The notes: generated by a model not told the origin, from the letters alone. Counted from the first letter of the stretch, positions 7,776 to 60,151 are shown. The stretch: DNA of 64,000 bases from a phage (GCA_024672315.1 GCA_024672315.1_4714.1), one strand, 5' to 3'. Numbers and translations are program-made.

Positions 7776-7809
7776 TTCTTACGATCCTTTTTATTTATTC
7801 GGTTATGTG

Positions 7810-9609: not shown

Positions 9610-9645
9610 ACACTCCTTTCAGAAAGTTGCTTAAGCAGATTAAAG

Positions 9646-11082
9646 TTACTTTTTCGATGACGCCTTCTCAAGAATCTTGAAAAAGGTCATACCTATACCG
9701 ACAACGGCCGCAGTTATACTCGCAGCGGCTTTCCAAACATCGACGTTACGTTGACGTCGCGCTTCTTCCGCTTCACGTTGTCTTTTTGCCTCTTCATCAC
9801 GTCGGCGTATCTCGGCAGCAAACTCGTCGTGCTTACGTTTGGATTCTTCGTCTCGACGACGAAGTTCAGCGACGAATTCTTCATGTTTGCGTTTAGCCTC
9901 GTCATCACGACGTTTTAAATCAGCTTGATAATCTTCGTGTATTTGTTTACGTAGATCATCTTGACGTTTCATTTCGGCTTGGTGTTGTTCCATCCTACGT
10001 TTTTGTTCGTCTTTAAGCTGATCGAGTTCGGCTTTATGTTGTTCATCGCGCAGCTTTGCGTCGGCGCGATGCGCCTCATGCATCTGCGCGATAACTGCCT
10101 TGTGTTCATCCGCCATACGTCGCATTTCAGCCATCACCCCTTTAAGGGTTTCTTCTGATGCCTTACGTTCGTAGCTACGCTGGTCGAAATCATTTTTGTA
10201 GGCTTCTTTTTGGATGGGGTCGCGCCAATGCAATGCCGATTCACGTGTCGGAAAAACATTGTACTTCCACATCTCTTTTTCCAAATCTTCGACCGGTACG
10301 AAGATGGAGTCATTATTCCCGAAGGTAACCAACATACCTGGCGCGCCTGCTCCATTCGTTGGTTTTATTTCGAACGCTTTCCCCAGCACGTTAACCCATA
10401 AGCTATACGGATTATGAAAGTCGGGTGGCGTCCAATGGATAGTGAGTTGCGTTCCGAGAATTCGGAAACCCTCTGTTTTTCCCGTCAAGCTCCGCGCGCA
10501 CGTTGCGATGTAGGGGTGATCAATCCCTTTCGTAACGTGGTCTGCGCTTTTGTATTCTCCTTTAACTTTTACGATTGCCACGTTGATTTGCGCGACATAA
10601 GCGGGTTGATTAAAGTTCAACGTGTTGAGGTCAATTTGACATATTTCATCCAGCGTATCGTACCAGTCTTGCTGGTCTAATAGGCGCGGCATTTTCTCGG
10701 TGTTAACAATACGACGGATATGCGGTTTCCTTATCGCGTAACCTGTGCCGTTTTTAACACGGAGTATATCCCGACGTCTACCCGCGTAGACGAAGTTTCT
10801 GAATGCACCATTCGCATTAGATACGTCATGGCTGTCAACTATTACAGGACTACGAAATTTTGAACGTCGTACGATCCTGAATGTATTGCCGTCCTCAACC
10901 CTACCAGGAATGTACTGGAACATATTGTCGGAGGTGATAACCAACACGGTATGGCCAGATTCATTAATACATGCCCATCCTAATTCCAGGTCATATAACG
11001 GTTCAGCATAACCGTCAATGCGATAAGCGTGCGTACCATCCCACGGTTCGAACGCCGTATCACATATTGGCATGGAGGGCAT
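9646..11082 (-). CDS. tail-anchored membrane protein with long E/R/K-rich charged helix (478 aa)
   Basis: ATG at 11082 preceded by GGAGG (6-nt spacer); ORF-track TTG start at 11088 rejected. C-terminal 130 aa of near-tandem charged repeats (ELRRRDEESKRKHDEF / EIRRRDEEAKRQ) followed by a hydrophobic segment AAASITAAVVGIGMTFFKIL and a basic tail. Confidence 0.75.
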   Translation of the reverse strand: MPSMPICDTAFEPWDGTHAYRIDGYAEPLYDLELGWACINESGHTVLVITSDNMFQYIPGRVEDGNTFRIVRRSKFRSPVIVDSHDVSNANGAFRNFVYAGRRRDILRVKNGTGYAIRKPHIRRIVNTEKMPRLLDQQDWYDTLDEICQIDLNTLNFNQPAYVAQINVAIVKVKGEYKSADHVTKGIDHPYIATCARSLTGKTEGFRILGTQLTIHWTPPDFHNPYSLWVNVLGKAFEIKPTNGAGAPGMLVTFGNNDSIFVPVEDLEKEMWKYNVFPTRESALHWRDPIQKEAYKNDFDQRSYERKASEETLKGVMAEMRRMADEHKAVIAQMHEAHRADAKLRDEQHKAELDQLKDEQKRRMEQHQAEMKRQDDLRKQIHEDYQADLKRRDDEAKRKHEEFVAELRRRDEESKRKHDEFAAEIRRRDEEAKRQREAEEARRQRNVDVWKAAASITAAVVGIGMTFFKILEKASSKK

Positions 11083-11231: not shown

Positions 11232-11257
11232 TCACCTAGGTAATGTAAGCGTCAAAT
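11232..11257 (-). promoter_or_regulatory. conserved AT-rich motif (partial copy), candidate phage promoter
   Basis: TCACCTAGGTAATGTAAGCGTCAAA shares the TCACCTAGGTAATGTA core with the 17.7-kb and 57.4-kb copies; upstream of gene 9646-11082. Confidence 0.3.
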
Positions 11258-16942: not shown

Positions 16943-17512
16943 TTAGACGATGAGTGACCAGGTGGTAAGCACCCCGCTTGCGAATTCGAGCTTAAGACGT
17001 TTACCGATAAGTTGTTGCTGAATCATCTTCTCGGTGATACGTCGATCATGCTGAACCGCTTTATCAAACGCTTCTTTCGCTTCAGCTTGGTAGAAGTTCG
17101 TTTCTTCGTTTTCGTCGATCTCTTCGAGAGCATCGTCGTCGATGTCAGCAAGTTTCACTCGACCGTTTTCATCAGGTTGTTCTGCAGGTTCATTGTCATA
17201 CGGCGTGTCTTTTGTTGGTGCGACACGATGTTGCAACTCGACCTGTGTTAACATGATCTCCATCTCACCATCGATAGGAATGATTTCATCGGCGCTGCCG
17301 TTTTCGGTCAGCTCCCGACTTTCCAGTAATGTCGTCGTAACAGAGAACACCTCTTCAACAGGAACCTCATCATCGTCGATGGTGTTAACCGTGTTGCTGG
17401 TAACTTCAGCAACGACCATCAAATCAAATGCGTGAGGATCGCCTGGCATTTTGATTCCTGGAAGTTTGTTGAGGTACCAAGGATCAAGAATCATGATTTC
17501 TGGATTAAACAT
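16943..17512 (-). CDS. hypothetical acidic protein (189 aa)
   Basis: ORF with ATG; strongly acidic composition; preceded by 300-nt intergenic region carrying the conserved promoter-like motif and hairpin. Confidence 0.65.
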   Translation of the reverse strand: MFNPEIMILDPWYLNKLPGIKMPGDPHAFDLMVVAEVTSNTVNTIDDDEVPVEEVFSVTTTLLESRELTENGSADEIIPIDGEMEIMLTQVELQHRVAPTKDTPYDNEPAEQPDENGRVKLADIDDDALEEIDENEETNFYQAEAKEAFDKAVQHDRRITEKMIQQQLIGKRLKLEFASGVLTTWSLIV

Positions 17513-17708: not shown

Positions 17709-17747
17709 GCTCTTATCACCTAGGTAATGTAGTCGTGAAATAAACTG
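17709..17747 (-). promoter_or_regulatory. conserved AT-rich motif, candidate phage promoter
   Basis: Plus-strand GCTCTTATCACCTAGGTAATGTAGTCGTGAAATAAACTG; minus-strand reading contains TACATTACC; near-identical copies at 57427-57508 and partly at 11232-11257, each between a GC-rich hairpin and a downstream minus-strand gene. Confidence 0.35.
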
Positions 17748-48351: not shown

Positions 48352-49851
48352 ATGAGCGAACAAGAACGAAAACCTAAGAAGAAACTGCTCGGTATTCAAT
48401 GTCGACACATCAGTTATAACGAAGCGAACGATGGCAGCAAGAACGACCTCATGATCGCAAAAGAGATCATGTTCTTTGATGATAACACACAAGCGACGAA
48501 TCTTCGCTTCTTCGAGAATTACAAACGTCCGTTTTGGGTGACGGTAGAGAGTAAACGCAAGAACAAATATAAAAAGGAAAGCGAGAAGCTCTCGCACGTG
48601 CGTCGCTACGATGTCCGTCAAAGTGAACTGGTTGAAAAGATCAGTTCGGTGCTTTATAAAAGACGTGCTGATGATAACACCCGTCTACAGCAGCTTGCAC
48701 GGAGTCCATACCTCTATGGCACGGACGTTAGCGCCAGCTGTTATTTAAAAACTCAGTACAACACAAAATGGCCGGAATACGTCGATAAATTACCCGCTTC
48801 CATTGCCTGTTTCGATATCGAAACCGACGTTGTCCATGGACACGGTAAGATCGTCTGTATGTCTATTACAATGGGATACAATGCGATACTTTGCTATACC
48901 AAGGACTTCGTTGGTCATATTCCGAATGCCATTGAGAAAACCCATGAGAAGATTCGATATTACCTGGCCGAACGTCTGAACACCAAAGAAGATCCTCACG
49001 CGTTCGAAAAATATCAGTACGATGTGCGAATCGTAGAAAGTCCGGCACAAGCGGTCATCCAATGCATGCAGAAGGTTCACGAATGGCAGCCGGATTATCT
49101 CCTTGGCTGGAATATCGCGTTCGATATTCCGCGCATGCTCCAGGCACTGAACGAAGAAGGGTATCGTCCCGAGGATGTTTTCTCCGATCCTCGTGTACCA
49201 CCTAAATATCGCATTGCTCGCTGGGTACCACCGAAGACCGACAAGGTATCTGCTTCAGGGCGTAAAACCAACCTTACCCTTGAGCAAACCTGGCCGATGT
49301 TTTATACGATGGCTACGTATCAGGTTATGGATGCGATGTGTGGTTATAAGTTCGTTCGTTTAGGAAGACCGGATGAGGGACGCTATTCACTCGATGCGGT
49401 ATTAGAGCGAAATAAATGCCATACGAAATTAAAAGCAATTCCTGGTACAGAAGGGTTCACGGAGCTCGCCTGGCACGAAGAGATGCAAACGAACCATCAA
49501 ATCGACTACGGCGTATATAACCTTTGGGATAACCAGGGTATCGAGGCGTTGGACCAGAAAACAAAAGACTATTCGATGACCATCCCTATTCGTTTAGCGG
49601 CGTCGGATTTGAAAGATTTCAGTTCTAACCCTAAACGTATCTGCGATAAACTTTTCTTCGTTTATCTTAACCGTGGGGAAGTCATGGGATGCACCGCCGA
49701 CGACATGACCCAGGAAGAAGATAAGTGGGTTATCTCACGAACCGGACATATCGTCACATTGCCGTGCGATCTCATGGCGGACAACGGCATCCATCTCTTC
49801 TGGGATATGCCTAATTTAAGGAGCTATATTCGATTATTTGTTGCGGATTAA
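48352..49851 (+). CDS. family-B DNA polymerase N-terminal/3'-5' exonuclease domain protein (499 aa, no polymerase domain)
   Basis: Exo I-like motif CFDIETD, Exo II-like GWNIAFDIP and an Exo III-like Y-x3-D (YGVYNLWD) in canonical order and spacing; no polymerase A/B/C motifs before the stop; no clear SD upstream of ATG. Confidence 0.6.
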   Translation: MSEQERKPKKKLLGIQCRHISYNEANDGSKNDLMIAKEIMFFDDNTQATNLRFFENYKRPFWVTVESKRKNKYKKESEKLSHVRRYDVRQSELVEKISSVLYKRRADDNTRLQQLARSPYLYGTDVSASCYLKTQYNTKWPEYVDKLPASIACFDIETDVVHGHGKIVCMSITMGYNAILCYTKDFVGHIPNAIEKTHEKIRYYLAERLNTKEDPHAFEKYQYDVRIVESPAQAVIQCMQKVHEWQPDYLLGWNIAFDIPRMLQALNEEGYRPEDVFSDPRVPPKYRIARWVPPKTDKVSASGRKTNLTLEQTWPMFYTMATYQVMDAMCGYKFVRLGRPDEGRYSLDAVLERNKCHTKLKAIPGTEGFTELAWHEEMQTNHQIDYGVYNLWDNQGIEALDQKTKDYSMTIPIRLAASDLKDFSSNPKRICDKLFFVYLNRGEVMGCTADDMTQEEDKWVISRTGHIVTLPCDLMADNGIHLFWDMPNLRSYIRLFVAD

Positions 49852-49940
49852 CCTTCGTTCTGTAAAAGTTTACTTCATGTAAGAATTGTGTGCGGCATAA
49901 GAGAGGCCGATACATCTAGATATTACATGAGGTTTACGAG

Positions 49941-51131
49941 ATGGAAAAATCTATACATACTCAAACTGGAACTATTGACTATCGCGATTCAGCATATTTG
50001 CCGTACACAAATCATCGTTATCGTATATTTGAAGATGGCGAGTTGTACGACTATAAAGAAGATAGGGTCGTCCCTTACGAAGTTGTAGACGGTGTCCCTT
50101 ATGTTGAAATCGATTGGTATAGAGGCATTGGAAAATACGATCTCGGTATGATCATTCTCACCGTTCTTGAACGGGTTGCTTTACCAGATCACCTTTACGA
50201 TGAAATTGAATCGTTGTTTGTGGACGGAGATCCGACTAACTTTTCGTATAGCAATCACATCTACCGTTTCCGTAATGGGCCGTTAGAAGTTGAGGGATTC
50301 GAAGGTTATTGTTATATTCCGTTTGCATCTCGTTACGCGATAAATAAAGAAGGACATTGTATTAGTCTTCTTTCGTTGGATCCTATCACGTGGACGAAAA
50401 CGGTTCAGCAAGGCACACGTCTTGGCGGATACGCTTATCGTAAAGTGGTTCCTGATAGCGGGTTTACACCGCAGTTGTATCGTCACCGAGCTATCATGTT
50501 AGCGTTTACGAGATATGATGCTAACGTTGTGAACTTAACCGTAAATCATAAAAACGGAATTAAAGGTGACGATTGGTTTGACAACCTCGAATGGGCGACA
50601 TATGCCGAGAACAATCAACATGCTCGTATGGCAGGGTTGTGTATAGGTACGTCAAAACCTGTTTTGGTTTATGATTACCGTGCACGAATCGAACGTCGTT
50701 TTAATAGTATCGCAGAAGCGGAACGTGCTTATCCGTACGTACCGAAAGGACGTTTCAAATGGTGGGTAAACAATCCCCCGAAACGTATCCCAGAATGCGA
50801 TTTATACATCAAGTTTGCCACGGACAATACGCCTTGGCCAGAGTGGAAACTTGGAGAAGATCGTCGTGTCGAGGACACCGATGGTCGCGGTATTCTCGCT
50901 ATTAATAAAGAGACGAACGAACGACATGTGTTTCCATCAGTAACTGCTGCCGCAAATGCGTTAGGAATCTCCTGGATTACCGTAAGACGTCATTGCGATC
51001 GTCGTGCAGTACCTACGAAACAGCCTTGGTGTTTTCGTTATGCTGATGATATTGCCGCTATGCCCGATTTCGATGTTAGTAAATTAGTTCCTAAGAAGAA
51101 GCGTGTATTTAATGTTCCATTAGAACGATAA
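49941..51131 (+). CDS. HNH homing endonuclease (396 aa)
   Basis: HNH signature NHKNGIKGDDWFDNLEWATYAENNQHA (H-N-G ... N-L-E-W ... E-N-N-x-H pattern of HNH_3-type homing endonucleases); GAGG RBS; lies immediately upstream of group I intron core elements. Confidence 0.7.
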   Translation: MEKSIHTQTGTIDYRDSAYLPYTNHRYRIFEDGELYDYKEDRVVPYEVVDGVPYVEIDWYRGIGKYDLGMIILTVLERVALPDHLYDEIESLFVDGDPTNFSYSNHIYRFRNGPLEVEGFEGYCYIPFASRYAINKEGHCISLLSLDPITWTKTVQQGTRLGGYAYRKVVPDSGFTPQLYRHRAIMLAFTRYDANVVNLTVNHKNGIKGDDWFDNLEWATYAENNQHARMAGLCIGTSKPVLVYDYRARIERRFNSIAEAERAYPYVPKGRFKWWVNNPPKRIPECDLYIKFATDNTPWPEWKLGEDRRVEDTDGRGILAINKETNERHVFPSVTAAANALGISWITVRRHCDRRAVPTKQPWCFRYADDIAAMPDFDVSKLVPKKKRVFNVPLER

Positions 51132-51170
51132 CAGGTCCCCCTACTTGTAATGAGTGGGTGAACTCTCTTT

Positions 51171-51565
51171 AATTGCTGGAAACCTTTAATGCCCCTCCAC
51201 ACCACAACGCAATCCGAAAGGGTAAACGTGATGGTTGTCGAAAGACAGAAAAAAGTTGGAGGGGATTACCTATGTTGCAATAAAAGCCACCGCTTTCTTG
51301 GATAACGAAAGATGACGGTGGTACTAAGGGTAGAAGATAGAAATAAGGTAACCGTAGCAGCGAAGACCCTACGGACTGTCGTGACCGACTCGATGAGTTG
51401 GCGTGGTTAACACGGACAGGCTACGGGTAACGTTCAACGACCATCCGGTTGCGCGGAGTAGGAGAATTAGGATGTTCTCCGAAAAGGGAGAAGTCGGTCG
51501 AGGTGTTGTAGAAACACCGTTGGGTTTGCTAACGCGAATATAAGACAGGCTAAGATATGGTCTAT
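51171..51565 (+). ncRNA. putative group I intron catalytic core (P, R and S conserved elements)
   Basis: ORF-poor 0.8-kb region containing, in canonical order, a P-like element AATTGCTGGAAACC (51171-51184), R-like GTTCAACGACCA (51432-51443) and S-like AAGATATGGTC (51552-51562); R GACCA and S TGGTC can pair as P7 with a compensatory change relative to the canonical GACUA/UAGUC. Splice sites not determined. Confidence 0.5.
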
Positions 51566-51912
51566 TTTTCGTTGTGTTCATGTATAGAAATTACTGAACC
51601 ATCGTAAGAGCTCGATATATCTTCAAGCTATCCAAATGGGCAGATCCTGTTGAATCTATCCAGAGCATGTGTTTTTCGTGAGCTCTCGCGCATTGAGGGC
51701 GTCTCTGACTATCAATTCAGGAAGTTAGGTATCAACTTTATTACCGGAGGTAAAACGAACGCTGTAGACTTCTGTAGAATCGTTTATAAAGCACCGTCGA
51801 TGTTTGAACTTTTAGAACATTTCGATGCGACGCGCCCAAAAGAGGAAGCGCGGACCATCGAATGAATCAAGTATGTTGATCCTCGTTTAACAAAAAGAAA
51901 ACGCATGCGAAG

Positions 51913-51944
51913 CCCCTCCCCCTGGCGGAAGCCGGAGGGAGGGG
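51913..51944. terminator. GC-rich stem-loop, repeat-family member
   Basis: CCCCTCCCCCTGGC-GGAA-GCCGGAGGGAGGGG closing the plus-strand island and abutting the stop of the 51951 minus gene; TTTATG downstream. Confidence 0.4.
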
Positions 51945-51950
51945 TGAGGT

Positions 51951-52436
51951 TTATGCGCGTTCGTTGCCAACCGTTACTTTGTAGTCAGCGTCGGTTAAGA
52001 AAATAGACAGGAATCCATGTTCTTTGCAAATCTGACTAAGGATGTCAGCAATGATTTCGTTGATCATCGGTTTGTTTGCAAGGGCATAGATGTACCCGGG
52101 TGTAAAAGAAAGTGCATGATTGATCATAGGCTCATGAGAAGCCAAGATAAGGATCACGTGATGCTTCCCATCGTCGGTAACGACCGCTTGCGTAGACACG
52201 AAGAAATCAGTGAAGCAGCAGCGATCACAGGCTTTAGGTATATACAAATCACCCAGAGCTTCGTCGCGTGCTTTTATGTGTGTTTCAGGGGTGATGCTGC
52301 TAAGTTGATCTTCAGCGAGATCCAAGACATCCTCAATCGTTTTAAGAATAGCGTTGCGGAAATCCTCGCGGTAGAATGGGATGATATCACGATCGTTCAT
52401 GTAATCGCCGGATTCGATAGTAAAGTTGATGTTCAT
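51951..52436 (-). CDS. hypothetical protein (161 aa)
   Basis: AGGAG RBS 6 nt upstream of ATG; stop overlaps hairpin flank at 51951. Confidence 0.7.
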   Translation of the reverse strand: MNINFTIESGDYMNDRDIIPFYREDFRNAILKTIEDVLDLAEDQLSSITPETHIKARDEALGDLYIPKACDRCCFTDFFVSTQAVVTDDGKHHVILILASHEPMINHALSFTPGYIYALANKPMINEIIADILSQICKEHGFLSIFLTDADYKVTVGNERA

Positions 52437-52546
52437 TGAATGCTCCTAGTGGTTATGTCGATTGATTGACGTGTTAATTTATGTTTGATGAGGTATACTT
52501 GAAACTACAAATAAGGCTCTTGGCGTTGCTGTTATGGTTCAGTTCT

Positions 52547-52999
52547 TTATCCCTTGTTGGATTCGTCAATATACTTGGTGTCGTAAGACAAATGCTGAAT
52601 TAATTTTCTAGGTCTGATGAATATACGACATGTGATAAACACATCAGGATCGTATTGTTCCACGCAACGTCCGAAGGCTCGTTTTGCGGACTGACGCATC
52701 AAGGTTAATTCCTGATCGTTCATCTCATCATCAAATTCGATGTGTATCGTGATTTTATCGGGAAATAAATAGATAGAGTAGTCGCTACCGATATCACCGT
52801 CGTCAAAACGATAATCGTTGTGGTAATGGTGGAGTTTACCTTCGTGTATCGTCTGGTACCACCCGACGATACTATCAAGACCCATACCCAGGCGTCCGAA
52901 TGCCTGATTAATAATATCTTCGACGATGGATGCGGGTGTGGGACCATTGAATAGACGATCTAAGCGCTTTTTCATCGATTTGTCGGTTTTCATGTTCAT
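52547..52999 (-). CDS. hypothetical protein (150 aa)
   Basis: ORF with ATG and AGGA RBS. Confidence 0.65.
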   Translation of the reverse strand: MNMKTDKSMKKRLDRLFNGPTPASIVEDIINQAFGRLGMGLDSIVGWYQTIHEGKLHHYHNDYRFDDGDIGSDYSIYLFPDKITIHIEFDDEMNDQELTLMRQSAKRAFGRCVEQYDPDVFITCRIFIRPRKLIQHLSYDTKYIDESNKG

Positions 53000-53037
53000 T
53001 GTTTCTTTTCCTGTGTAGTCGGTATACAGCCCTTCCC

Positions 53038-53073
53038 CGGCCTTGATGGCTAGGGAAGGGGCTATGCTACGTT
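53038..53073. terminator. GC-rich stem-loop, repeat-family member
   Basis: AGCCCTTCCC...GGGAAGGGGCT with inner GCC/GGC stem; TATG downstream. Confidence 0.35.
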
Positions 53074-53074
53074 G

Positions 53075-53473
53075 TTATGCTTCGCAATCAGCTGAAGGCG
53101 TCGCGCCTTTCTTACCAGCGATACGCCAAATCCGACACGCTGGGTAATGGTTAACCTCTAGAGAGCAAGGAATGTTATATTTCTCTTCCAGCGCATAAAG
53201 ACATTTCGTTAGCTGCTCCAGCGCGTTCTCGTCGTGTCGTAACGCGTGGTGGCCTAATCGATGTTGGTCGTTCTTTATATACGCCTCGAAGAGAACATGT
53301 TGGCGATGTACGCTGACGTTTACAGCCTCGAGTATAGCTTGGTCGAGCATACGACTAAAGCACATCAACGAGTCAGATACGTTTTCTCGCTTAACCAGAT
53401 CGATCATGGTGGGAATATACGAATGGTCGATGTTATCGATGACCGCTTTAGCGACGGAATCAGCAACGTTCAT
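53075..53473 (-). CDS. small hypothetical protein, paralog pair member A (132 aa)
   Basis: Start moved to ATG at 53473 (MNVADSVAKAVIDNIDHS...) with AGGGA RBS, which aligns with the paralog N-terminus MSIVESIVKAVNDNIDHP; shared EEKYNIP-SLEVN motif. Confidence 0.7.
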   Translation of the reverse strand: MNVADSVAKAVIDNIDHSYIPTMIDLVKRENVSDSLMCFSRMLDQAILEAVNVSVHRQHVLFEAYIKNDQHRLGHHALRHDENALEQLTKCLYALEEKYNIPCSLEVNHYPACRIWRIAGKKGATPSADCEA

Positions 53474-53509
53474 CTTTTTAATCCCTAGTTTGTTATTGAT
53501 CACGTATAT

Positions 53510-53905
53510 TTACTCTTTGACGTCAGTTGTCGTTTCGACATGCTTCTCACTACTGACGTACCAGAGCAGGTACGTTGGGAAAAGATTGACCTCTAAGCTA
53601 AATGGGATATTGTATTTCTCTTCCATTTTACAGAGATGTTCTTTAAGTAAATTTCTCGCGTCTCTGTCACCACGAACAGAGTGCCAGTCTAGTTCTTTGT
53701 TCTCCTTTACCAGGACCTCTACGATGATACGTTGCTCGTGAACCTCGGTTTTCACAGTGAAAAGTAAATCGCTGCTATCAAAACGGGTAAAACGAATGTA
53801 TGAACCAGGTGTTTTTTCTTGTTTGATAATATCGATCATGGTAGAAATGCGCGGATGATCGATGTTGTCGTTAACAGCTTTAACGATGGATTCTACAATG
53901 CTCAT
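53510..53905 (-). CDS. small hypothetical protein, paralog pair member B (131 aa)
   Basis: AAGGAT RBS; paralog of 53075-53473. Confidence 0.7.
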   Translation of the reverse strand: MSIVESIVKAVNDNIDHPRISTMIDIIKQEKTPGSYIRFTRFDSSDLLFTVKTEVHEQRIIVEVLVKENKELDWHSVRGDRDARNLLKEHLCKMEEKYNIPFSLEVNLFPTYLLWYVSSEKHVETTTDVKE

Positions 53906-53938
53906 TTTTTTATCCTTAATGTTATCGATTTGTAAATA

Positions 53939-54706
53939 TTACTTATTTTTGCTTTCTTTATAGACAGTTGTTACCCACGATGGGAAAGCCGGATGGAAAC
54001 AGAGCGTGAACGTAACTGTCGTATCGTATTTAAACGCACAGTTCACTAACCGGGTATCGAACGTTTTCCTTAGACCATCATCATCGTTATCGATGACAGC
54101 CATATCTCTTAATATCCCAAGCACGTTAACGCCGTCGAGTGTCTGGGTTACAACAAGTCGTCGTAATGGCCCGCATGTATAGTTACGTACAAATCCTTTC
54201 TTCGGGTCCGATACCCTGTTTAACGCATCGTGATTTTTGATGAATTCATCGGCGATCCAATAGATTTGTTCCCTTGCTTTATCGGGATCGTATTCTGCTA
54301 ATAGTTCCTTCGTGTCGAACGTTATCACGTTATTATCATTCGATTCAGAAGGGAAACATAAAACTAAACGAACAGGGTATTCGTATTGATCTGTTCTTGT
54401 TTCGAAAGCATTAGCTAAACACGGCTTGTATGCCTTTGCGTCGACATTGTCCAAACATGGATGCAATAATGCGTGAATAACGGCACCATCGTCAGTTAAA
54501 CCGAATTCCAGAAATTGTACCCTATCAGTATCCGCTACGGTTTTCTGAAGATACGCTTTACCGTTTACGATATCGGTATCCCACATATCGTCGTTTAACG
54601 ATTCTTCAAACTTATCGAATATATGGTTTACGAGATTGACGAGTTCATCAATACGGCACTGTTGGTTGAATTCGATTAATCGCTGAACTTTATCTTTGAT
54701 AGACAT
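53939..54706 (-). CDS. hypothetical protein, probable member of tandem paralog array (255 aa)
   Basis: AAGGGG RBS; segment VDAKAYKPCLANAFETR...PVRLVLCF resembles VDAIRRLADVANNAFTKS...PITLTLKF of the next gene. Confidence 0.65.
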   Translation of the reverse strand: MSIKDKVQRLIEFNQQCRIDELVNLVNHIFDKFEESLNDDMWDTDIVNGKAYLQKTVADTDRVQFLEFGLTDDGAVIHALLHPCLDNVDAKAYKPCLANAFETRTDQYEYPVRLVLCFPSESNDNNVITFDTKELLAEYDPDKAREQIYWIADEFIKNHDALNRVSDPKKGFVRNYTCGPLRRLVVTQTLDGVNVLGILRDMAVIDNDDDGLRKTFDTRLVNCAFKYDTTVTFTLCFHPAFPSWVTTVYKESKNK

Positions 54707-54708
54707 GA

Positions 54709-55167
54709 TTACCCCTTAGCTCCTTCTTCGTCTGGAGAGTATTCCATCGTGTAGAATTCATAACCGTCGGAAAACTTGAGTGTTAATGTAATAGGGAAAT
54801 CGCACGGCATAGCTGATTTCGTAAATGCGTTATTAGCAACATCCGCCAACCGACGTATAGCATCAACCCCGCTGACGCTGAATGGTAGTTGTATGTTGAT
54901 AAGGATACGATGCTTGTAAACATAGAAAACAACGGTACTGTCAAGATAAACGCTATGAAACGGTATTGTTGGGATGCGTTCCACGATGGTAAAATACGTG
55001 CCGTCATTATCGCTATGTCCCATCGACCAAATATCGGATTTACGTAGATTTTGTTTGAGGGATTCGATACTTCGAGTGACGGTCTCAGCAACAGGCGTGA
55101 CGTAAGTGTCTCTATGCGAGTCGAAAAGTTCGTTGACGTTAGATTCGAATGAATACATTGTTGCCAT
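54709..55167 (-). CDS. small hypothetical protein, tandem paralog (152 aa)
   Basis: AAGAGG RBS; start overlaps upstream stop by 1 nt (TAATG); shares LPFSV-G motif with 55167-55628. Confidence 0.7.
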   Translation of the reverse strand: MATMYSFESNVNELFDSHRDTYVTPVAETVTRSIESLKQNLRKSDIWSMGHSDNDGTYFTIVERIPTIPFHSVYLDSTVVFYVYKHRILINIQLPFSVSGVDAIRRLADVANNAFTKSAMPCDFPITLTLKFSDGYEFYTMEYSPDEEGAKG

Positions 55168-55628
55168 TATTCTACCTCTTTCTTCATCTTCATCGGAACA
55201 GAGAGTGCTGTTATCTCTGTTCCATTATCCGGTTCATACTCCAATGTAACGAGATTGCAGCCATCCGATAATTCATAATCGATCGCTAGGGGGAACGAGA
55301 TACCGTGCGACTTTATGCATTTACCAAATGTCTCGTTGGCTGTATACATTAGAAGTTGCTTTGCGGCAAGCCCGTTTACGCTGAAAGGTAATTGTGCTGT
55401 CGCAGCGATACGATTATTGTAAACTCTGATATCGGTGATATCTACAATCGTAGCATTGCCGTGTTGTGTTGTTGGAACGGATAGGTTGTAGAAGTAAGGT
55501 TCGGAGTCGGAATCGGACTCATTAAATAATTCCCAGCATCCGTCCTCCTGCAATCTTACCTCGAGTATTTCAAAGCTTTTAATTATCGATTCTACCAGCT
55601 GCTCACCGTAAGAATCCCACGTCGTCAT
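55167..55628 (-). CDS. small hypothetical protein, tandem paralog (153 aa)
   Basis: ATG with AAGGTG upstream; paralog of 54709-55167 (AQLPFSVNGLAAKQLLMYTANETFGKC vs IQLPFSVSGVDAIRRLADVANNAFTKS). Confidence 0.7.
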   Translation of the reverse strand: MTTWDSYGEQLVESIIKSFEILEVRLQEDGCWELFNESDSDSEPYFYNLSVPTTQHGNATIVDITDIRVYNNRIAATAQLPFSVNGLAAKQLLMYTANETFGKCIKSHGISFPLAIDYELSDGCNLVTLEYEPDNGTEITALSVPMKMKKEVE

Positions 55629-55699
55629 TTTTTAACACCTTCGACACCTTTTAACCGATACGTGTCCCACCTAACAAGGGACACGATATCGTCGATTAA

Positions 55700-56194
55700 T
55701 TACTCTTCTGTGTTTTCATTGTCAGGATCGTAGTGGAATTCGAACAGCCCTGAACCGTCGTGTCCGTTGATTGTTAGTATAACTGGCATATCGAATCCTC
55801 GGACGCGCGAATGAAAACACTGTGCTAATTTTAGTTTGGCGTATGCCGCTATTTCATTGACGGCAATACACGACTCACCTGTTATACTCAGTATAACGTC
55901 GATACTAACAATGTTGTCGTGCAACGCAAAACGCCAGCGATCGATACGATTATTATCTTTAGCAGCTGTCTCGTTTACGAGATAGACTTTATCGTCAACC
56001 GACAAAGCAGGTCTCCAGCAACTGTTGTTCCTTAAATTCGCCTCGAATCGCAGCATCGTTGTGTCGATAATATCCCAACATGCAACTAGTACGGTATTGG
56101 GCACTAAATTGAGAAGAGCTGATACCCTATCCTTTATTTTAAGTGCTTCCGCAGGACGCCCGCAAATACCATGCATTTCAACTTTCTTATCCAT
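55700..56194 (-). CDS. small hypothetical protein, tandem paralog (164 aa)
   Basis: Start moved to ATG at 56194 with AGAGGTG RBS (ORF-track GTG start 56200 rejected); C-terminal region similar to neighbouring paralogs. Confidence 0.65.
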   Translation of the reverse strand: MDKKVEMHGICGRPAEALKIKDRVSALLNLVPNTVLVACWDIIDTTMLRFEANLRNNSCWRPALSVDDKVYLVNETAAKDNNRIDRWRFALHDNIVSIDVILSITGESCIAVNEIAAYAKLKLAQCFHSRVRGFDMPVILTINGHDGSGLFEFHYDPDNENTEE

Positions 56195-56237
56195 ATTCAC
56201 CTCTTTTTTAATCTAAATGTTAGTTGGGATAGGGCGA

Positions 56238-56840
56238 TCACATGCTTTCTAACATATCGATGATCATGGAACCCATACCGAAACTCGGTCTCTCGCCGAT
56301 GTACTCAGCAAGCTGACGATGAACGTCTTTTGGATTTCCTTCTTCACCATCAGCATCGATGTAGACCGAAAAAGAAAATGAATCGGAATCCACACTGATA
56401 ACCAGACGGCGTTCATTGCGTTCCTTAAGTGTATCGACAATAGCTGCTTTCAGTATTGCGATCGCATTCATCGCGTGCATGATATCTCCATCGGGTTTCG
56501 GCAGATCGATCTTTTCTTTCAGGTCGATATTGATGTTGGTTACAATTGGGTTGAGGTCGACCTTGACATAATCGTTGGGATACATGCGAATAATCGCACG
56601 ATCGATATCTGAACCGTAAAAGTCAACACGTGGCTTTAACACCTCTTTGTTTGGATCCATGTTTTCATCCATCCCTGCCTGCAAGAAACGTTCGACGTTA
56701 TCCAGTTCACGATAGACTGACGCTTCGATTTCTTTCAGATAGTTGGCTGCGGTTTCATGTTCTTTACGTAGCTCGTCTTTAAGGAGCTGTACTGTGGTTT
56801 CACTGGAACGAATGCTGTTCGCGAATTGGGTAATTGACAT
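56238..56840 (-). CDS. hypothetical protein (200 aa)
   Basis: Start moved to ATG at 56840 with AAGGA RBS 7 nt upstream (ORF-track TTG start 56870 rejected). Confidence 0.65.
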   Translation of the reverse strand: MSITQFANSIRSSETTVQLLKDELRKEHETAANYLKEIEASVYRELDNVERFLQAGMDENMDPNKEVLKPRVDFYGSDIDRAIIRMYPNDYVKVDLNPIVTNINIDLKEKIDLPKPDGDIMHAMNAIAILKAAIVDTLKERNERRLVISVDSDSFSFSVYIDADGEEGNPKDVHRQLAEYIGERPSFGMGSMIIDMLESM

Positions 56841-56897
56841 ATCGAATTCCTTAAATTCTCTTGGGTTCAATTAATGATGAAAAGCTGTAAAAAAAGA

Positions 56898-56915
56898 GGT
56901 GGGGCGAACCCCACC
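56898..56915 (-). terminator. intrinsic (rho-independent) terminator
   Basis: 7-bp GC stem GGTGGGG-CGAA-CCCCACC followed on the minus strand by a T7 run 3 nt after the stem; 25 nt downstream of the 56941 gene stop. Confidence 0.6.
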
Positions 56916-56940
56916 AAAACGTCAGACACACGCAGGAAAA

Positions 56941-57366
56941 TTAATTCAGTGATGCATATAAGGCATAACGACTGTAGATCTCAACCGCCGGTCCGTTATG
57001 TGTTAACAGACCGTCTCGGCCGTAATACTGGAAAAATGAATAACGTTTGTCGAAGTGATAAACAAAAGCAATGTCTTTGCCGTCAAAACCCATGACGCGC
57101 GGCCTGTTTTTATCTAGCAACGCTTTGACTTTTAACAGTGTTGCCGCACGCGCTTTAACGTTAGGGATTAATCCATCACAATCGATATAAACCGTGTAAC
57201 CTGTTTCAGATGTTGCGACGGTTGTATTGCGATTGACGCGAAAGATTTTTGTTTTGTACGTATCATCTTCAAGAATTGGGTTTTGTTTTTCGTATTTTCG
57301 TTTACGTAGAAATTCTACAACGGTGATATAGTTAGCGGTAATATGCCCGGTTATAGCTTGTAACAT
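56941..57366 (-). CDS. hypothetical protein (141 aa)
   Basis: AAGGAT RBS; followed by canonical intrinsic terminator on the minus strand. Confidence 0.7.
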   Translation of the reverse strand: MLQAITGHITANYITVVEFLRKRKYEKQNPILEDDTYKTKIFRVNRNTTVATSETGYTVYIDCDGLIPNVKARAATLLKVKALLDKNRPRVMGFDGKDIAFVYHFDKRYSFFQYYGRDGLLTHNGPAVEIYSRYALYASLN

Positions 57367-57426
57367 CTTGACATCCTTTTATATTGGATTGATTGCAATT
57401 GTCTTAAATAGATGATAAGATATTTT

Positions 57427-57508
57427 GCTCTTATCACTAAGGTAATGCTTACGCGTCGCGTTCATGATGCATGGCATCATGAAGGTAATATAGTCGTGAA
57501 ATAAACTG
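57427..57508 (-). promoter_or_regulatory. conserved AT-rich motif (split copy), candidate phage promoter
   Basis: Same motif as 17709-17747, split by a 33-nt insertion carrying two small palindromes (ACGCGTCGCGT; TCATGATGC-ATG-GCATCATGA); minus-strand reading contains exact TATATTAC. Confidence 0.35.
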
Positions 57509-57540
57509 CGTTAACACGAAATAAAAACAGCATAGAAACC

Positions 57541-57584
57541 TCCTCCCCCATCCTTCAAGAGGACGGTGGGAAGAGGGAGAGATT
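57541..57584. terminator. GC-rich stem-loop, degenerate repeat-family member
   Basis: CCTCCTCCCCCA...GGTGGGAAGAGG imperfect hairpin; flank GCATAGAA upstream; adjacent to conserved promoter-like motif. Confidence 0.3.
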
Positions 57585-57984
57585 AAATGTCGTGGACGGC
57601 AACGCCGTTTAACCAACAATACAGCTTAACGCGACAGGAATACCGCTTCGTTGCAGCAACCATTTCATCGCGTAAACGCTGGTAGATTTCATCCTGGTGT
57701 TCACGATCAATGGGGTAATCAGCCCAACATTCGATCATGACGTCACCATTCGTCAGAATCGTCGTACGCATCCTGTCCTGGATACGGCGGTCTTTCCCGG
57801 CATTAGGGAAATACATTCCTTCGGTACGAATAAGGTCGCCGCAGGGCATGACTAACCATTCGTTCGTTTTGCCGGTATTCTTATAATCCATTACGGCTTG
57901 CATTGCGGTGTCAACGCTAAAAGAAACATAATTCCAAACGGATGTCCAACGATAGATTGCGGGTTGTTCGAGTGTTTCGTTCAT
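57583..57984 (-). CDS. hypothetical protein (133 aa)
   Basis: ORF with ATG and AGGA-like RBS. Confidence 0.65.
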   Translation of the reverse strand: MNETLEQPAIYRWTSVWNYVSFSVDTAMQAVMDYKNTGKTNEWLVMPCGDLIRTEGMYFPNAGKDRRIQDRMRTTILTNGDVMIECWADYPIDREHQDEIYQRLRDEMVAATKRYSCRVKLYCWLNGVAVHDI

Positions 57985-58038
57985 GGAGTGCTTTTCCTAT
58001 TTTTATTTTCTGCACAGGATAAATTCAACGGCATAAAG

Positions 58039-58070
58039 CCCTTCCCTGCCCTTATATGGGGCGGGAAGAG
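58039..58070. terminator. GC-rich stem-loop, repeat-family member (imperfect)
   Basis: CCCTTCCCTGCCC...GGGGCGGGAAGAG with flanks GCATAAAG / TTTATGACC. Confidence 0.3.
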
Positions 58071-58197
58071 TTTATGACCGCAATGAGAATCTCTCACGAC
58101 AAGCTCACGACGATTATCGCATCACCCCGCGAGTGAGGGAGATCAGGATCACCTCCTACGTCGTAACGACAGCAATCCCGTTACGTCGCTTTAGACG

Positions 58198-58824
58198 TTA
58201 TGCAAAGCGACGCATGTAACCTGCCAGATAGTTACGCGTATCGAAGTAGGCAATTTCAGGAATTGCGATATTAAGGTCGATAGCGCGGATTTCAACTTGG
58301 CGACGGCTTTCATCATAGATCGCATCCATCAGACGCAGTACTGTCAGGAAAGCCATGCGGGTATGGTAGTCCAGCGGCATGTTGTCGATACCGCGATACA
58401 GATAACGGTTTGCATTAAATGCCCCTTCGCTGTTATCTTTCCAGATCTTCAGAATATCAGCAAAGGCGGTGCGGAAAACCTCAGGATTATCCACATCCAG
58501 TAACGCACGGAAAGCAGACATTAAAGACCGCTGATGACGGATCAACGACTGCGGTGTTTGCGGCATGGTCGGACCCATTTCTTCCGCGTATTTCTGGAAC
58601 GGGGCAACCAGGGTTGCGGCACGAGAAGCCACGATAGAAACAGCTGGCGATTCTTTCGCCGCTGGTTTCGCAGGCTTTTCTTCAACAACGGTTTCCTTCT
58701 TCTCAACAGCGACCGTTTCCGGCTGTGCTACAACATCACTAACCGGAGCATCTGCAACGGTGGTTTCTACCGCAGTAATCTCCTCGTCCATTTTTGCAGA
58801 ACGTTGGTCTTTATTCTTGCTCAT
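58198..58824 (-). CDS. hypothetical protein (208 aa)
   Basis: AAGGA RBS 7 nt upstream of ATG; stop lies inside a hairpin (58184-58212). Confidence 0.7.
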   Translation of the reverse strand: MSKNKDQRSAKMDEEITAVETTVADAPVSDVVAQPETVAVEKKETVVEEKPAKPAAKESPAVSIVASRAATLVAPFQKYAEEMGPTMPQTPQSLIRHQRSLMSAFRALLDVDNPEVFRTAFADILKIWKDNSEGAFNANRYLYRGIDNMPLDYHTRMAFLTVLRLMDAIYDESRRQVEIRAIDLNIAIPEIAYFDTRNYLAGYMRRFA

Positions 58825-58849
58825 GTTTATTTCCTTTTGTTTAACAAGG

Positions 58850-60151
58850 TTAACTAATATAAAGTTCAGGATCGTAAGGCGCTAACGATACACTGGCGTT
58901 ATGCATTGCTTTCATCATAGTGTTCATGAAAACGTTGTTTACACCGGTGATCTCTGCCCCGATCGCATCTGGGGTTGGAGCCATCGCGTTACCGCAACAG
59001 GTAGCACAGTATTCCAATGGGCCTGCTTTACAACGTTGAGGATCACGTAACTTGATGGTTTGTCCTTCCAAGGAAGCGAGTAATTCAGCATCGATAAGTT
59101 TAAGAGCCGCGCCGTCGATCATGTAACGGCCGACAAGCAGCTTATCTTTGATGTGGTCGCGGTTTACCGTGAAAAGAATATGCTCGTGGGTACCGCAGTC
59201 GTCCATCGTGATTTTAAGGTTCTGTGTCGCACGTTGTGATTCTTTCGCCGTCTGTCCAGCTAAAGCGGTCAACGCACCACGTGAGAACGAACCGGCACGT
59301 GCACTGTTGTTGTACTCCGCCCAATGGTCGACACGCATCCCTTCGGCCAGGCTGTGTGTGATAACGTTACGTTTACCGGGGTCAACGAAGTCGGCTTCAA
59401 CCCCCATCATGATGTGCGTTTTCTTTCGAGTATTACCGAAACTCTTGCCTGGGTTAATATAGAACCCTTCCGACTCATCGCCCTTAAAGGATTCCTTATC
59501 CATTTTGGTTAGCGTGGCTTCGAGTTTGATCAGTTCTTCAGGCGTGAACTTACCTTCCTCTTGTAAGCGCGCCAACTCTTTATCACGATAGGCAATAATA
59601 TCATCATCGACCGTTAACGCTTTATCACTCATTGACGGGACAATTAAACGGTTGATAGCGGTTAATGCGCTGATATTGTTGGTGAATTTCTTCACTTCGC
59701 TTGCGTACAACGGACCAATAGGACGTTCATTAGGATCGGGTATTCCCTCTTCGGGATCGTCCGCTACGCGTGGCGCAATCAGTGACTCCAGTGTGCCGCT
59801 GGTCAACCGTCCTGCCTGATATTCAATCTGAATACCGAAAGCATCATAAAGGACGTACATATTGAACAACGCTTCACCGAAGGTTGTGGTGGTTGTGTTC
59901 TTAACCGACGGTAAATCGCCAGGTGCGAGCTCCAACGGCTCCCAGAAACTCAACAAGGGTTTTGTTGGCTCGGTTTCCCATTGGTGTTCTTCACCGTCGA
60001 TGGTAACCGTAACGACGTTACCTTGACGACGTAATTTAGGCTGATACTTCTCAGCGCCGCCTTCCGTAAAAGCAAATGCGTCGTTAATCCATTCAAGATA
60101 TCGGTAGTGCCCTTCACGCATCGCGTAAAGGAAATATTCACGAGGTGTCAT
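58850..60151 (-). CDS. hypothetical protein (433 aa) with C-terminal cysteine cluster
   Basis: AAGGAG RBS 7 nt upstream of ATG; C-terminal cluster CKAGPLEYCATCCGN. Confidence 0.75.
   Translation of the reverse strand: MTPREYFLYAMREGHYRYLEWINDAFAFTEGGAEKYQPKLRRQGNVVTVTIDGEEHQWETEPTKPLLSFWEPLELAPGDLPSVKNTTTTTFGEALFNMYVLYDAFGIQIEYQAGRLTSGTLESLIAPRVADDPEEGIPDPNERPIGPLYASEVKKFTNNISALTAINRLIVPSMSDKALTVDDDIIAYRDKELARLQEEGKFTPEELIKLEATLTKMDKESFKGDESEGFYINPGKSFGNTRKKTHIMMGVEADFVDPGKRNVITHSLAEGMRVDHWAEYNNSARAGSFSRGALTALAGQTAKESQRATQNLKITMDDCGTHEHILFTVNRDHIKDKLLVGRYMIDGAALKLIDAELLASLEGQTIKLRDPQRCKAGPLEYCATCCGNAMAPTPDAIGAEITGVNNVFMNTMMKAMHNASVSLAPYDPELYIS

Follow-up and report, generated by a model that had tools for sequence, protein, structure and literature searches.

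The 64,000-nucleotide stretch of phage DNA GCA_024672315.1_4714.1 (hereafter the window), which its sequence assigns to a Goslar-like nucleus-forming jumbo phage (Goslarvirus, Chimalliviridae), carries on its minus strand a tandem array of small paralogous genes, lettered here together with their neighbours from A to L in order of increasing coordinate (Table 1). A preliminary description of the window had singled out six of these genes, C to H. The paralog array is statistically solid, and it is larger and more coherent than that description had noticed. The superfamily to which the genes belong is confined to Goslar-like nucleus-forming jumbo phages, and, having no known relatives, is new as a protein family, whereas the locus is of a familiar phage kind. 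The Goslar orthologs of the genes that both phages possess lie in a discrete early block, and the locus varies strongly in content among closely related phages. We regard it as a good but unproven candidate for a role in host takeover or counter-defence.

All six open reading frames (ORFs) of the preliminary description are present, each with an ATG start, and a Shine–Dalgarno-like motif lies 6–10 nt 5′ of the start of every array gene. Paralogy was assessed by BLASTP and by a permutation test using local BLOSUM62 Smith–Waterman alignment with 1000 shuffles, in which unrelated pairs fell within ± 2.4 z. The strongest pair is C and D (BLASTP E 1e-31, 38% identity over 131 amino acids (aa); Smith–Waterman score 242 vs. 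28 ± 5 for shuffled sequences, z = 43), and the EEKYNIPxSLEVN block by which, along with a shared N-terminus, their kinship had originally been recognised is identical in both proteins. F and G follow (E 7e-18, 31% identity, z = 29), and G also matches Goslar gp072 with E 2e-15. H is related to both F (E 6e-5, z = 9.9) and G (E 6e-4, z = 7.2, a score reached by 1 of 1000 shuffles), and E is related to H (E 9e-6, z = 10.1) through a match confined to the N-terminal ~ 125 residues of E. Significant similarity on formal alignment, on which the claim of paralogy had been made to depend, was found for these five pairs, with z between 7.2 and 43. Thus, C and D are clear paralogs, F and G are paralogs, and more distant members are H and, in its N-terminal half, E. 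An LPFSV-G motif, which had been ascribed to F, G and H alike, occurs in F (QLPFSVSG) and G (QLPFSVNG), whereas H has ILSITGES at that position; likewise, the weaker similarity ascribed to E as a whole holds for its N-terminal half and not for the rest.

The array proteins are apparently soluble and mostly acidic, with isoelectric points (pI) of 4.35–6.0. Only L41, W47 and P125 are invariant, and no motif of catalytic look is present. The start and stop codons of neighbouring array genes are coupled or overlapping, e.g., the stop codon of G overlaps the start codon of F (ATGA). A hidden Markov model (HMM) search of the 64-kb window in all six frames found no further copies of the family.

Structure prediction extends the family beyond what sequence comparison joins. 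AlphaFold2 models were built for F and C from alignments of 29 and 22 sequences, respectively. The F model (mean predicted local distance difference test score (pLDDT) 82.9, predicted template modelling score (pTM) 0.75) has helices at residues 7–17 and 19–41, four strands, a helix at 101–119 and two strands, and the C model (pLDDT 83.8, pTM 0.80) has helices at 3–15 and 19–29, three strands, helices at 75–79 and 82–99 and two strands, so that the secondary structure elements of both follow the same order, alpha-alpha/beta-meander/alpha/beta-hairpin. When compared with predicted viral structures in BFVD, the F model has a sole match at E ≤ 0.001, Goslar gp073 (E 7e-11, template modelling (TM) score 0.69). 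The best match of the C model, and its only one at E ≤ 0.001, is again Goslar gp073 (E 1.2e-6, probability 1.0, TM 0.52, 11% identity). Because both models match gp073 best, the C/D and F/G/H groups are probably one fold superfamily, as judged from these predictions. Sequence profiles do not join the two groups (hhalign E 0.15, later 0.01, probability 4%), and the link is therefore a structural and predicted one.

Profile comparison within the locus gave hhalign probabilities of 98% for G–F, 96% for E–X140, 87% for H–F, 87% for B–B2, 82% for H–E and 80% for F–X140, in which X140 and B2 are proteins of related phages. Gene B, which had not been included among the paralogs, matches a profile made from F, G, H, the N-terminal half of E, gp072 and gp073 (the A1 profile) with 75% probability and E 2.6e-5 over 119 columns, making B a probable distant member. 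The C-terminal half of E has no significant match to any family, its best match being its own N-terminal half (E 0.009). None of A, I, J, K and L shows a profile link to the array family above 10% probability; a C-terminal beta-alpha-beta-beta pattern in these five proteins, judged by eye, is a guess. On these models and profiles, the superfamily would comprise C, D, E, F, G, H and probably B, i.e., mostly acidic proteins of ~ 130–165 aa with a predicted arrangement of alpha-alpha, a three- to four-strand beta meander, a long alpha helix and a beta hairpin. Sequence similarity (F, G, H and the N-terminal half of E), predicted fold (the F and C models) and location between gp074 and gp070 all place these proteins in one family with Goslarvirus gp071–gp073.

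Table 1. Genes, promoter-like motifs and hairpins of the array locus (positions counted from the first nucleotide of the window)
Feature	Position	Strand	Description
Gene A	51951-52436	-	161 aa; gp070 ortholog, 99% identity; last gene of early block, downstream anchor of array
Gene B	52547-52999	-	150 aa; gp071 ortholog, 93% identity
Gene C	53075-53473	-	132 aa; paralog of D; not in Goslar
Gene D	53510-53905	-	131 aa; paralog of C; sole occupant of the slot in other phages
Gene E	53939-54706	-	255 aa, two modules; not in Goslar
Gene F	54709-55167	-	152 aa; gp072 ortholog, 86% identity, E 1e-97; structure modelled
Gene G	55167-55628	-	153 aa, pI 4.35; paralog of F; not in Goslar
Gene H	55700-56194	-	164 aa; gp073 ortholog, E 1e-90, about 72-74% identity; family member
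Gene I	56238-56840	-	200 aa; gp074 ortholog, 97.5%; conserved, single-copy, acidic; upstream anchor of variable array
Gene J	56941-57366	-	141 aa; gp075 ortholog, 96%; single-copy, basic (pI 9.5); first gene of early block
Gene K	57583-57984	-	gp076 ortholog, 98% identity
Gene L	58198-58824	-	gp077 ortholog, 94% identity
Promoter-like motif TTTCACGACTATATTAC	57485-57501	-	heads early block J-I-H-G-F-E-D-C-B-A
All motif sites	11240-11256, 17326-17342, 17724-17740, 57485-57501	-	
Hairpin and T-rich tract	57539-57577	-	GC-rich, directly after K (J-K intergenic fold); upstream edge of early block
Hairpin GGTGGGGTTCGCCCCACC followed by T7	56898-56915	-	J-I junction; canonical intrinsic-terminator-like; annotated terminator in Goslar
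Hairpin without T-tract	55656-55691	-	H-G junction, -21.5 kcal/mol; edge of G insertion vs. Goslar
Hairpin AGCCCCTTCCCTAGCC...GGCCGGGGAAGGGCT	53028-53063	-	GC-rich, 5′ of B; boundary of C-D-E insertion vs. Goslar
Hairpin and T-rich tail	51893-51944	-	GC-rich, after A

The region 51900–58900 aligns with the genome of Escherichia phage vB_EcoM_Goslar (NC_048170) at 93.5% identity, with just 68% of the region's length covered. The window DNA without a Goslar match consists of two insertions, 53084–54722 (C, D and E) and 55169–55721 (G), which give the window four genes more than Goslar has at this place. The orthologs of B, F and H, i.e., gp071, gp072 and gp073 (YP_009820756-58, each annotated "hypothetical protein"), keep their position between gp074 and gp070.

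The timing of expression can be read from Goslar, for which an RNA sequencing (RNA-seq) comparison of ChmA knock-down and control at 30 min post infection (mpi) is available (Sup. Table 2 of bioRxiv 10.1101/2023.09.20.558163). Goslar genes there fall into two classes, one with transcripts that persist without the nucleus (log2 fold change ~ + 1) and one with transcripts that drop 10- to 100-fold; the persisting pattern is that of early genes, and the authors conclude that the virion RNA polymerase expresses these from the early infection vesicle (bioRxiv 10.1101/2023.09.20.558163). In the knock-down, gp070–gp075 have log2 fold changes of + 0.98 to + 1.32, whereas their neighbours gp068, gp069 and gp076–gp080 have − 3.6 to − 6 (bioRxiv 10.1101/2023.09.20.558163). 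The genes orthologous to A, B, F, H, I and J therefore make up a discrete early block that is transcribed without the phage nucleus. Their position inside this block suggests that C, D, E and G belong to the early class as well. Of the host-takeover role that the preliminary description had suggested for the array, the timing fits these data, as gp071–gp073 are in the early transcript class.

At the 5′ edge of the early block, the spacer between J and K contains the sequence TTTCACGRCTAYATTAC, which is conserved in eight related phages and lies at 57485–57501 in the window. With up to three mismatches allowed, the motif has four sites in the window, all on the minus strand, vs. 0.56 expected, and four sites were reached in none of 100 shuffles. 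Three of these sites mark the 5′ edges of early blocks, as given by their Goslar orthologs (11240 at gp040–037, 17724 at gp047–044 and 57485 at gp075–070), and the site at 17326 sits inside the gp047–044 block. We infer from this placement that the motif is a candidate early promoter of Goslar-like phages, putatively used by the virion RNA polymerase. It may resemble the phiKZ early promoter core TATATTAC; the 8-mer TATATTAC alone is not enriched in the window, only the longer conserved motif. A scan for sigma-70 promoters found 11 sites vs. 16.5 expected, i.e., below chance, and such a depletion is expected because the phage uses its own RNA polymerases.

Two further features were observed near this edge. 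Compared with Goslar and the related genomes L004, L008, L011 and L012, the J–K spacer of the window has a 43–44 bp insertion at the promoter-like motif (57447–57490, minus strand), which is common to L006 and L009, has ATTACCTT repeated at its two ends and resembles a small insertion flanked by a duplication. Some relatives have an additional gene, of 151 aa, that separates the K and J orthologs just 5′ of the early block (L011 2517–2972, L018 6449–6904), which neither the window nor Goslar has.

The hairpins that had been described as separating the small genes are present between B and C, G and H, and I and J, whereas the C–D, D–E, E–F, F–G and H–I junctions are 0–43 nt long and unstructured. 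The hairpins thus delimit sub-blocks rather than single genes. The hairpin upstream of B is conserved in all relatives, whatever gene precedes it, and that after H is kept in most of them; both coincide with the boundaries of the insertions. The fold at 57539–57577 is a probable terminator of the upstream late unit, and that at 51893–51944 is a probable terminator of the early block. From 5′ to 3′, the order of the early unit is accordingly the motif at 57485–57501, J-I-H, hairpin, G-F-E-D-C, hairpin, B-A and terminator.

The gene content of the locus was compared in ten sampled genomes, which have nine layouts, with 3 to 9 genes between the anchors I and A. Read from I to A, Goslar has H-F-B, the window H-G-F-E-D-C-B, L004 H-G-F-E-C-B-B2-X, L006/L007 H-[G~F]-E-Y-C-B-B2-X, L008 H-G-F-E-C-B-B2-X (with no A ortholog called), L012 H-F-E-D-B-B2-X and L018 H-F-E(N-domain only)-X. 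Here, B2 (166–169 aa) is a paralog of B found in other Goslar-like phages, X (139–148 aa) is related to F and to the N-terminal half of E, and Y (139 aa) and Z (122–124 aa) are additional small families at the locus. In every other sampled genome, the C/D slot holds a C-type gene, a D-type gene or neither, and only the window has both in tandem. The [G~F] product of L006/L007 is a 305-aa protein in which G (residues 1–150) and F (residues 154–305) are fused in frame, and it was found in two independent samples. The halves of E are discordant, e.g., P0095 has 96% identity in the N-terminal half and 51% in the C-terminal half, and the E of L018 is a 143-aa form with the N-domain only; these sequences suggest that the two halves of E evolve independently.

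The sequence identities themselves are mosaic. Between the window and L008, C is 99% identical, H 95%, B 73% and F 64%, whereas the flanking K and L are 99% identical. Between the window and Goslar, A is 99% and H 72% identical, and the rate of synonymous substitution (dS) of H is 0.62, vs. 0.06–0.17 in the flanks. Such mosaic identities mark the exchange of old alleles by recombination and not a recent burst of amino-acid changes. Pairwise Nei–Gojobori estimates of the ratio of nonsynonymous to synonymous substitution rates (dN/dS) are 0.16–0.36 for H, G, F, E, C and B and 0.12–0.17 for the flanking L, K, J, I and A. Therefore, all copies are under purifying selection, somewhat relaxed inside the array. 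Fresh duplication with rapid positive selection does not account for this diversity, as dS is high and dN/dS ≤ 0.36. The view of the array as locally duplicated and diversifying small proteins stands, but much of the diversity is due to the exchange of old divergent alleles and cassettes among co-circulating phages, to fusion and to truncation. The locus can be described as a cassette array that varies by tandem duplication, replacement by old divergent alleles via recombination, in-frame fusion and truncation.

Some relatives carry apparently damaged copies. In L011, the I ortholog is split into 67 and 144 aa (3663–4264) and B is cut to 114 aa (7582–7926); L009 has a 79-aa fragment of the Y family (7968–8207); and in L018 a non-coding stretch of 300 bp comes after the shortened E (9267–9698). 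Either assembly errors or genuine decay could account for these copies.

Database searches show how narrowly the family is distributed. No credible match to any of the genes was obtained from Pfam, PHROGs, NCBIfam or PADLOC; the only Pfam match at E ≤ 1 among A to J is that of J to Tt1219-like (E 0.11, 12.4 bits vs. a cutoff of 27), and a search of the PDB by sequence profile found no relative. When 1.84 billion representative proteins were searched exhaustively with HMMs, 9 matches were obtained. With 3 short fragments left out, the full-length ones that were checked are Goslar-type alleles of the array locus; P0156 and P0157 are divergent alleles of the "X140" slot. Word-indexed searching of 5.8 billion proteins yielded 136 and 30 matches, each of which is an ortholog of H, F, G, E, C or D; many of them lie on contigs of ~ 236–260 kb in E. 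coli, Salmonella and Shigella assemblies. At 90% identity, the orthologs of H form 59 clusters, those of F 33, those of E 27, those of D 18 and those of C 12. Three contigs with the array family were found in IMG/VR, P0156 had no match in phage records or IMG/VR, and neither complete E. coli genomes nor PLSDB plasmids yielded near-identical DNA. No homologs of the array family were found outside Goslar-like phages, other Chimalliviridae included. A published survey describes 60 Goslar-like genomes, all with a pairwise weighted gene-repertoire relatedness (wGRR) > 0.7 and with 214 core genes; 59 of the 60 genomes come from bacterial isolate assemblies and are called "persistent virulent phages" (bioRxiv 10.1101/2024.12.31.630880). 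The contigs that carry the array orthologs are the "persistent" Goslar-like phages of that study.

What the array proteins do has to be judged from these properties. The reading that we prefer, and which has in our estimate about an even chance of being right, is that they are acidic binding modules without enzymatic activity, made early and directed at host factors that vary. The array unit would be transcribed from the injected genome before, and independently of, the assembly of the phage nucleus, as in Goslar, and its proteins would be made in the host cytoplasm within the first minutes of infection. There, the modules would probably work as homo- or heterodimers of neighbouring gene products, as suggested by the fusion of G with F, by the two modules of E and by the ATGA overlap. 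They would bind, and then neutralise or redirect, host factors that differ between strains of E. coli, Salmonella and Shigella, the targets being cytoplasmic defence or physiology factors that the nuclear shell could not exclude. Since such targets would vary from strain to strain, a varied repertoire would be advantageous, and it would be reshuffled by recombination between co-infecting relatives. A more specific proposal, which we put forward tentatively and consider unlikely in its full form, is that the array is a Goslarvirus-specific counter-defence repertoire acting before the nucleus exists, in which each cassette would form a homo- or heterodimer and counter a different host immune system of the cytoplasmic, protein-sensing kind, which the early vesicle and the nuclear shell could not keep out, and the shuffling of cassettes would set the strains of E. 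coli, Salmonella and Shigella that a phage can infect or persist in.

Several points weigh against the binding-module reading. Among the array genes, B, F and H are the only ones with measured early expression, through their Goslar orthologs, that of C, D, E and G being assigned by position, and 175 of the 249 Goslar genes are detected at 5 mpi, so that "early" is not a very selective term. The link of C/D to F/G/H comes from predicted structures only (TM 0.52), and selection is purifying overall by pairwise dN/dS.

Among the other explanations is a role inside the phage itself. The array proteins might belong to the early infection machinery (the early vesicle, the hand-over of the genome to the nucleus, early mRNA handling or the selectivity of protein import) and co-evolve with other phage proteins. 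They have their transcription unit and timing in common with genes of the early-vesicle stage, their family is specific to one nucleus-forming lineage, and the fusion and translational coupling suggest multi-subunit assemblies. However, parts of such machinery are normally single-copy and conserved within a genus, whereas the locus holds 3 to 8 genes among phages whose K and L proteins are 98–99% identical; Goslar replicates with H, F and B only, and other Chimalliviridae, which use the same machinery, have no homolog. We therefore consider a phage-internal role doubtful. Conflict between related phages, with the cassettes serving superinfection exclusion or a long-term carrier state, appears rather improbable. 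The mosaic alleles do show frequent co-infection and recombination of related phages, early expression suits exclusion, and the origin of 59 of the 60 genomes from bacterial isolate assemblies accords with persistence, but nothing ties the locus itself to persistence, and the membrane or signal-peptide features common in exclusion proteins were not seen by eye, the only way in which they were sought. The smallest array of the ten genomes is that of Goslar, which alone among the members was sequenced as a phage isolate; this observation is compatible with such a role but anecdotal.

It is very improbable that the locus is a poly-immunity or antitoxin-like array, in which each paralog would neutralise a cognate phage or host toxin as in the immunity clusters of polymorphic toxins, since no toxin-like gene lies in or beside the block, there is no credible Pfam match among A to J, and neither PADLOC or NCBIfam matches nor matches to known immunity families were obtained. 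Finally, the truncated and split copies in L011, L009 and L018 could be taken as a sign that the array is non-functional debris, i.e., duplicates in decay, or ORFs that arose by chance, at a hot spot of recombination. This explanation is largely refuted, and we give it hardly any credence: dN/dS is 0.16–0.36 at high dS, the AlphaFold models are confident, every gene has a ribosome-binding site, the orthologs are transcribed in Goslar, and most members have dozens of 90%-identity ortholog clusters.

The array can be set beside several known systems. The best-known tandem paralog family in Chimalliviridae is that of the phiKZ inner-body proteins (PF12699; gp92–97 and gp162/163), which are virion-packaged and proteolytically processed, several of them being injected and several acting at the very start of infection (bioRxiv 10.1101/2024.03.24.586471). 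Inner-body identity was rejected on both domain content and expression class: no PF12699 match at E ≤ 1 was found for any of A to J, and the orthologs are early rather than late. In contrast to the inner-body proteins, the array orthologs are newly transcribed early and are much smaller. In a text search, gp070–gp074 are unmentioned in the Goslar virion-structure and cell-biology papers; for the virion-structure paper, this is a weak negative that covers its text and no proteomics table. JADA, the Avs5 trigger of phiKZ-like phages and a homolog of phiKZ_124, was also considered and rejected: it is essential and conserved family-wide, unlike the variable array, and no evidence of a relation was found.

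Early accessory clusters of virulent phages, e.g., the SPO1 host-takeover module and the early small genes of T4 and T5, offer a broader analogy, together with anti-defence islands. Like the array, these clusters and islands consist of small, mostly acidic, lineage-specific early proteins with phage-specific early promoters and strain-variable content. Unlike these clusters and the islands, the array block has no PHROG, Pfam or defence-profile match and no helix-turn-helix (HTH) regulator; for anti-CRISPR and anti-defence genes in particular, no PHROG, Pfam or NCBIfam match and no aca-type HTH regulator was found in the block with general libraries, none of them dedicated to anti-defence. Large eukaryotic DNA viruses have comparable multigene families or "genomic accordions", such as MGF110/360/505 of African swine fever virus (ASFV) and the K3L amplification of poxviruses. 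These have in common with the array tandem divergent small paralogs at a variable locus of a large, conserved double-stranded DNA virus, a copy number that varies between isolates, and early expression. However, variation of the array is mostly exchange of alleles and cassettes rather than recent amplification, there is neither a sequence relation nor a demonstrated structural one, and a link to host range is hypothesised only.

Goslar is the E. coli model for nucleus-forming jumbo phages, which are thought to be shielded from DNA-targeting defences, and this raises the question of how such phages handle cytoplasmic protein- and RNA-sensing defences in the minutes before the shell exists. The array locus is a small and tractable candidate for that role, being early, restricted to one lineage and highly variable among otherwise uniform phages. 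Knock-down with dCas13d works in Goslar, and the relatives amount to a natural series of alleles, with 3 to 9 cassettes as well as fusions and truncations. Were the proposed counter-defence repertoire real, its members would be anti-defence proteins of a new fold family, and the array would be the first host-range determinant acting after adsorption in a nucleus-forming phage. If, instead, the genes proved dispensable and host-independent, the locus would still be a clean example of phage cassette evolution.

Observations were also made on the genes adjoining the block. Upstream, the next gene after L is that of an RNA polymerase beta subunit (58850–60151, minus strand), an ortholog of Goslar gp078, "RNA polymerase beta subunit", which, like the rest of gp076–gp080, is in the late, nucleus-dependent class of the Goslar RNA-seq data. 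The late class of gp078 would fit a virion-packaged RNA polymerase subunit over the non-virion enzyme.

At the opposite flank of the array, the adjoining DNA polymerase gene (48352–51865, plus strand) comprises ORFs at 48352–49851 and 49941–51131 and an exon-2-like frame from ~ 51623 to 51865, and it appears to be split by a group I intron of ~ 1.75 kb with an HNH/NUMOD1 homing endonuclease. The Rfam model Intron_gpI matches 51067–51585 over its full length with 43.7 bits (gathering score 50; E 9.6e-9). The frame that follows this match, SSYPNGQILLNLSRACVFRELSRIEG...HFDATRP, corresponds to the C-terminus, bar the last few residues, of the 586-aa polymerase of L004 and L012, in which the polymerase is uninterrupted and the endonuclease absent. 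This second exon is unannotated in Goslar NC_048170 and is called as a separate 71-aa gene in L011. Between the gp070 ortholog and the intron-less polymerase, L004 (9839–12121) and L012 (9512–11794) have a gene for a 760-aa DUF7941 (PF25613) protein, which has no counterpart in the window.

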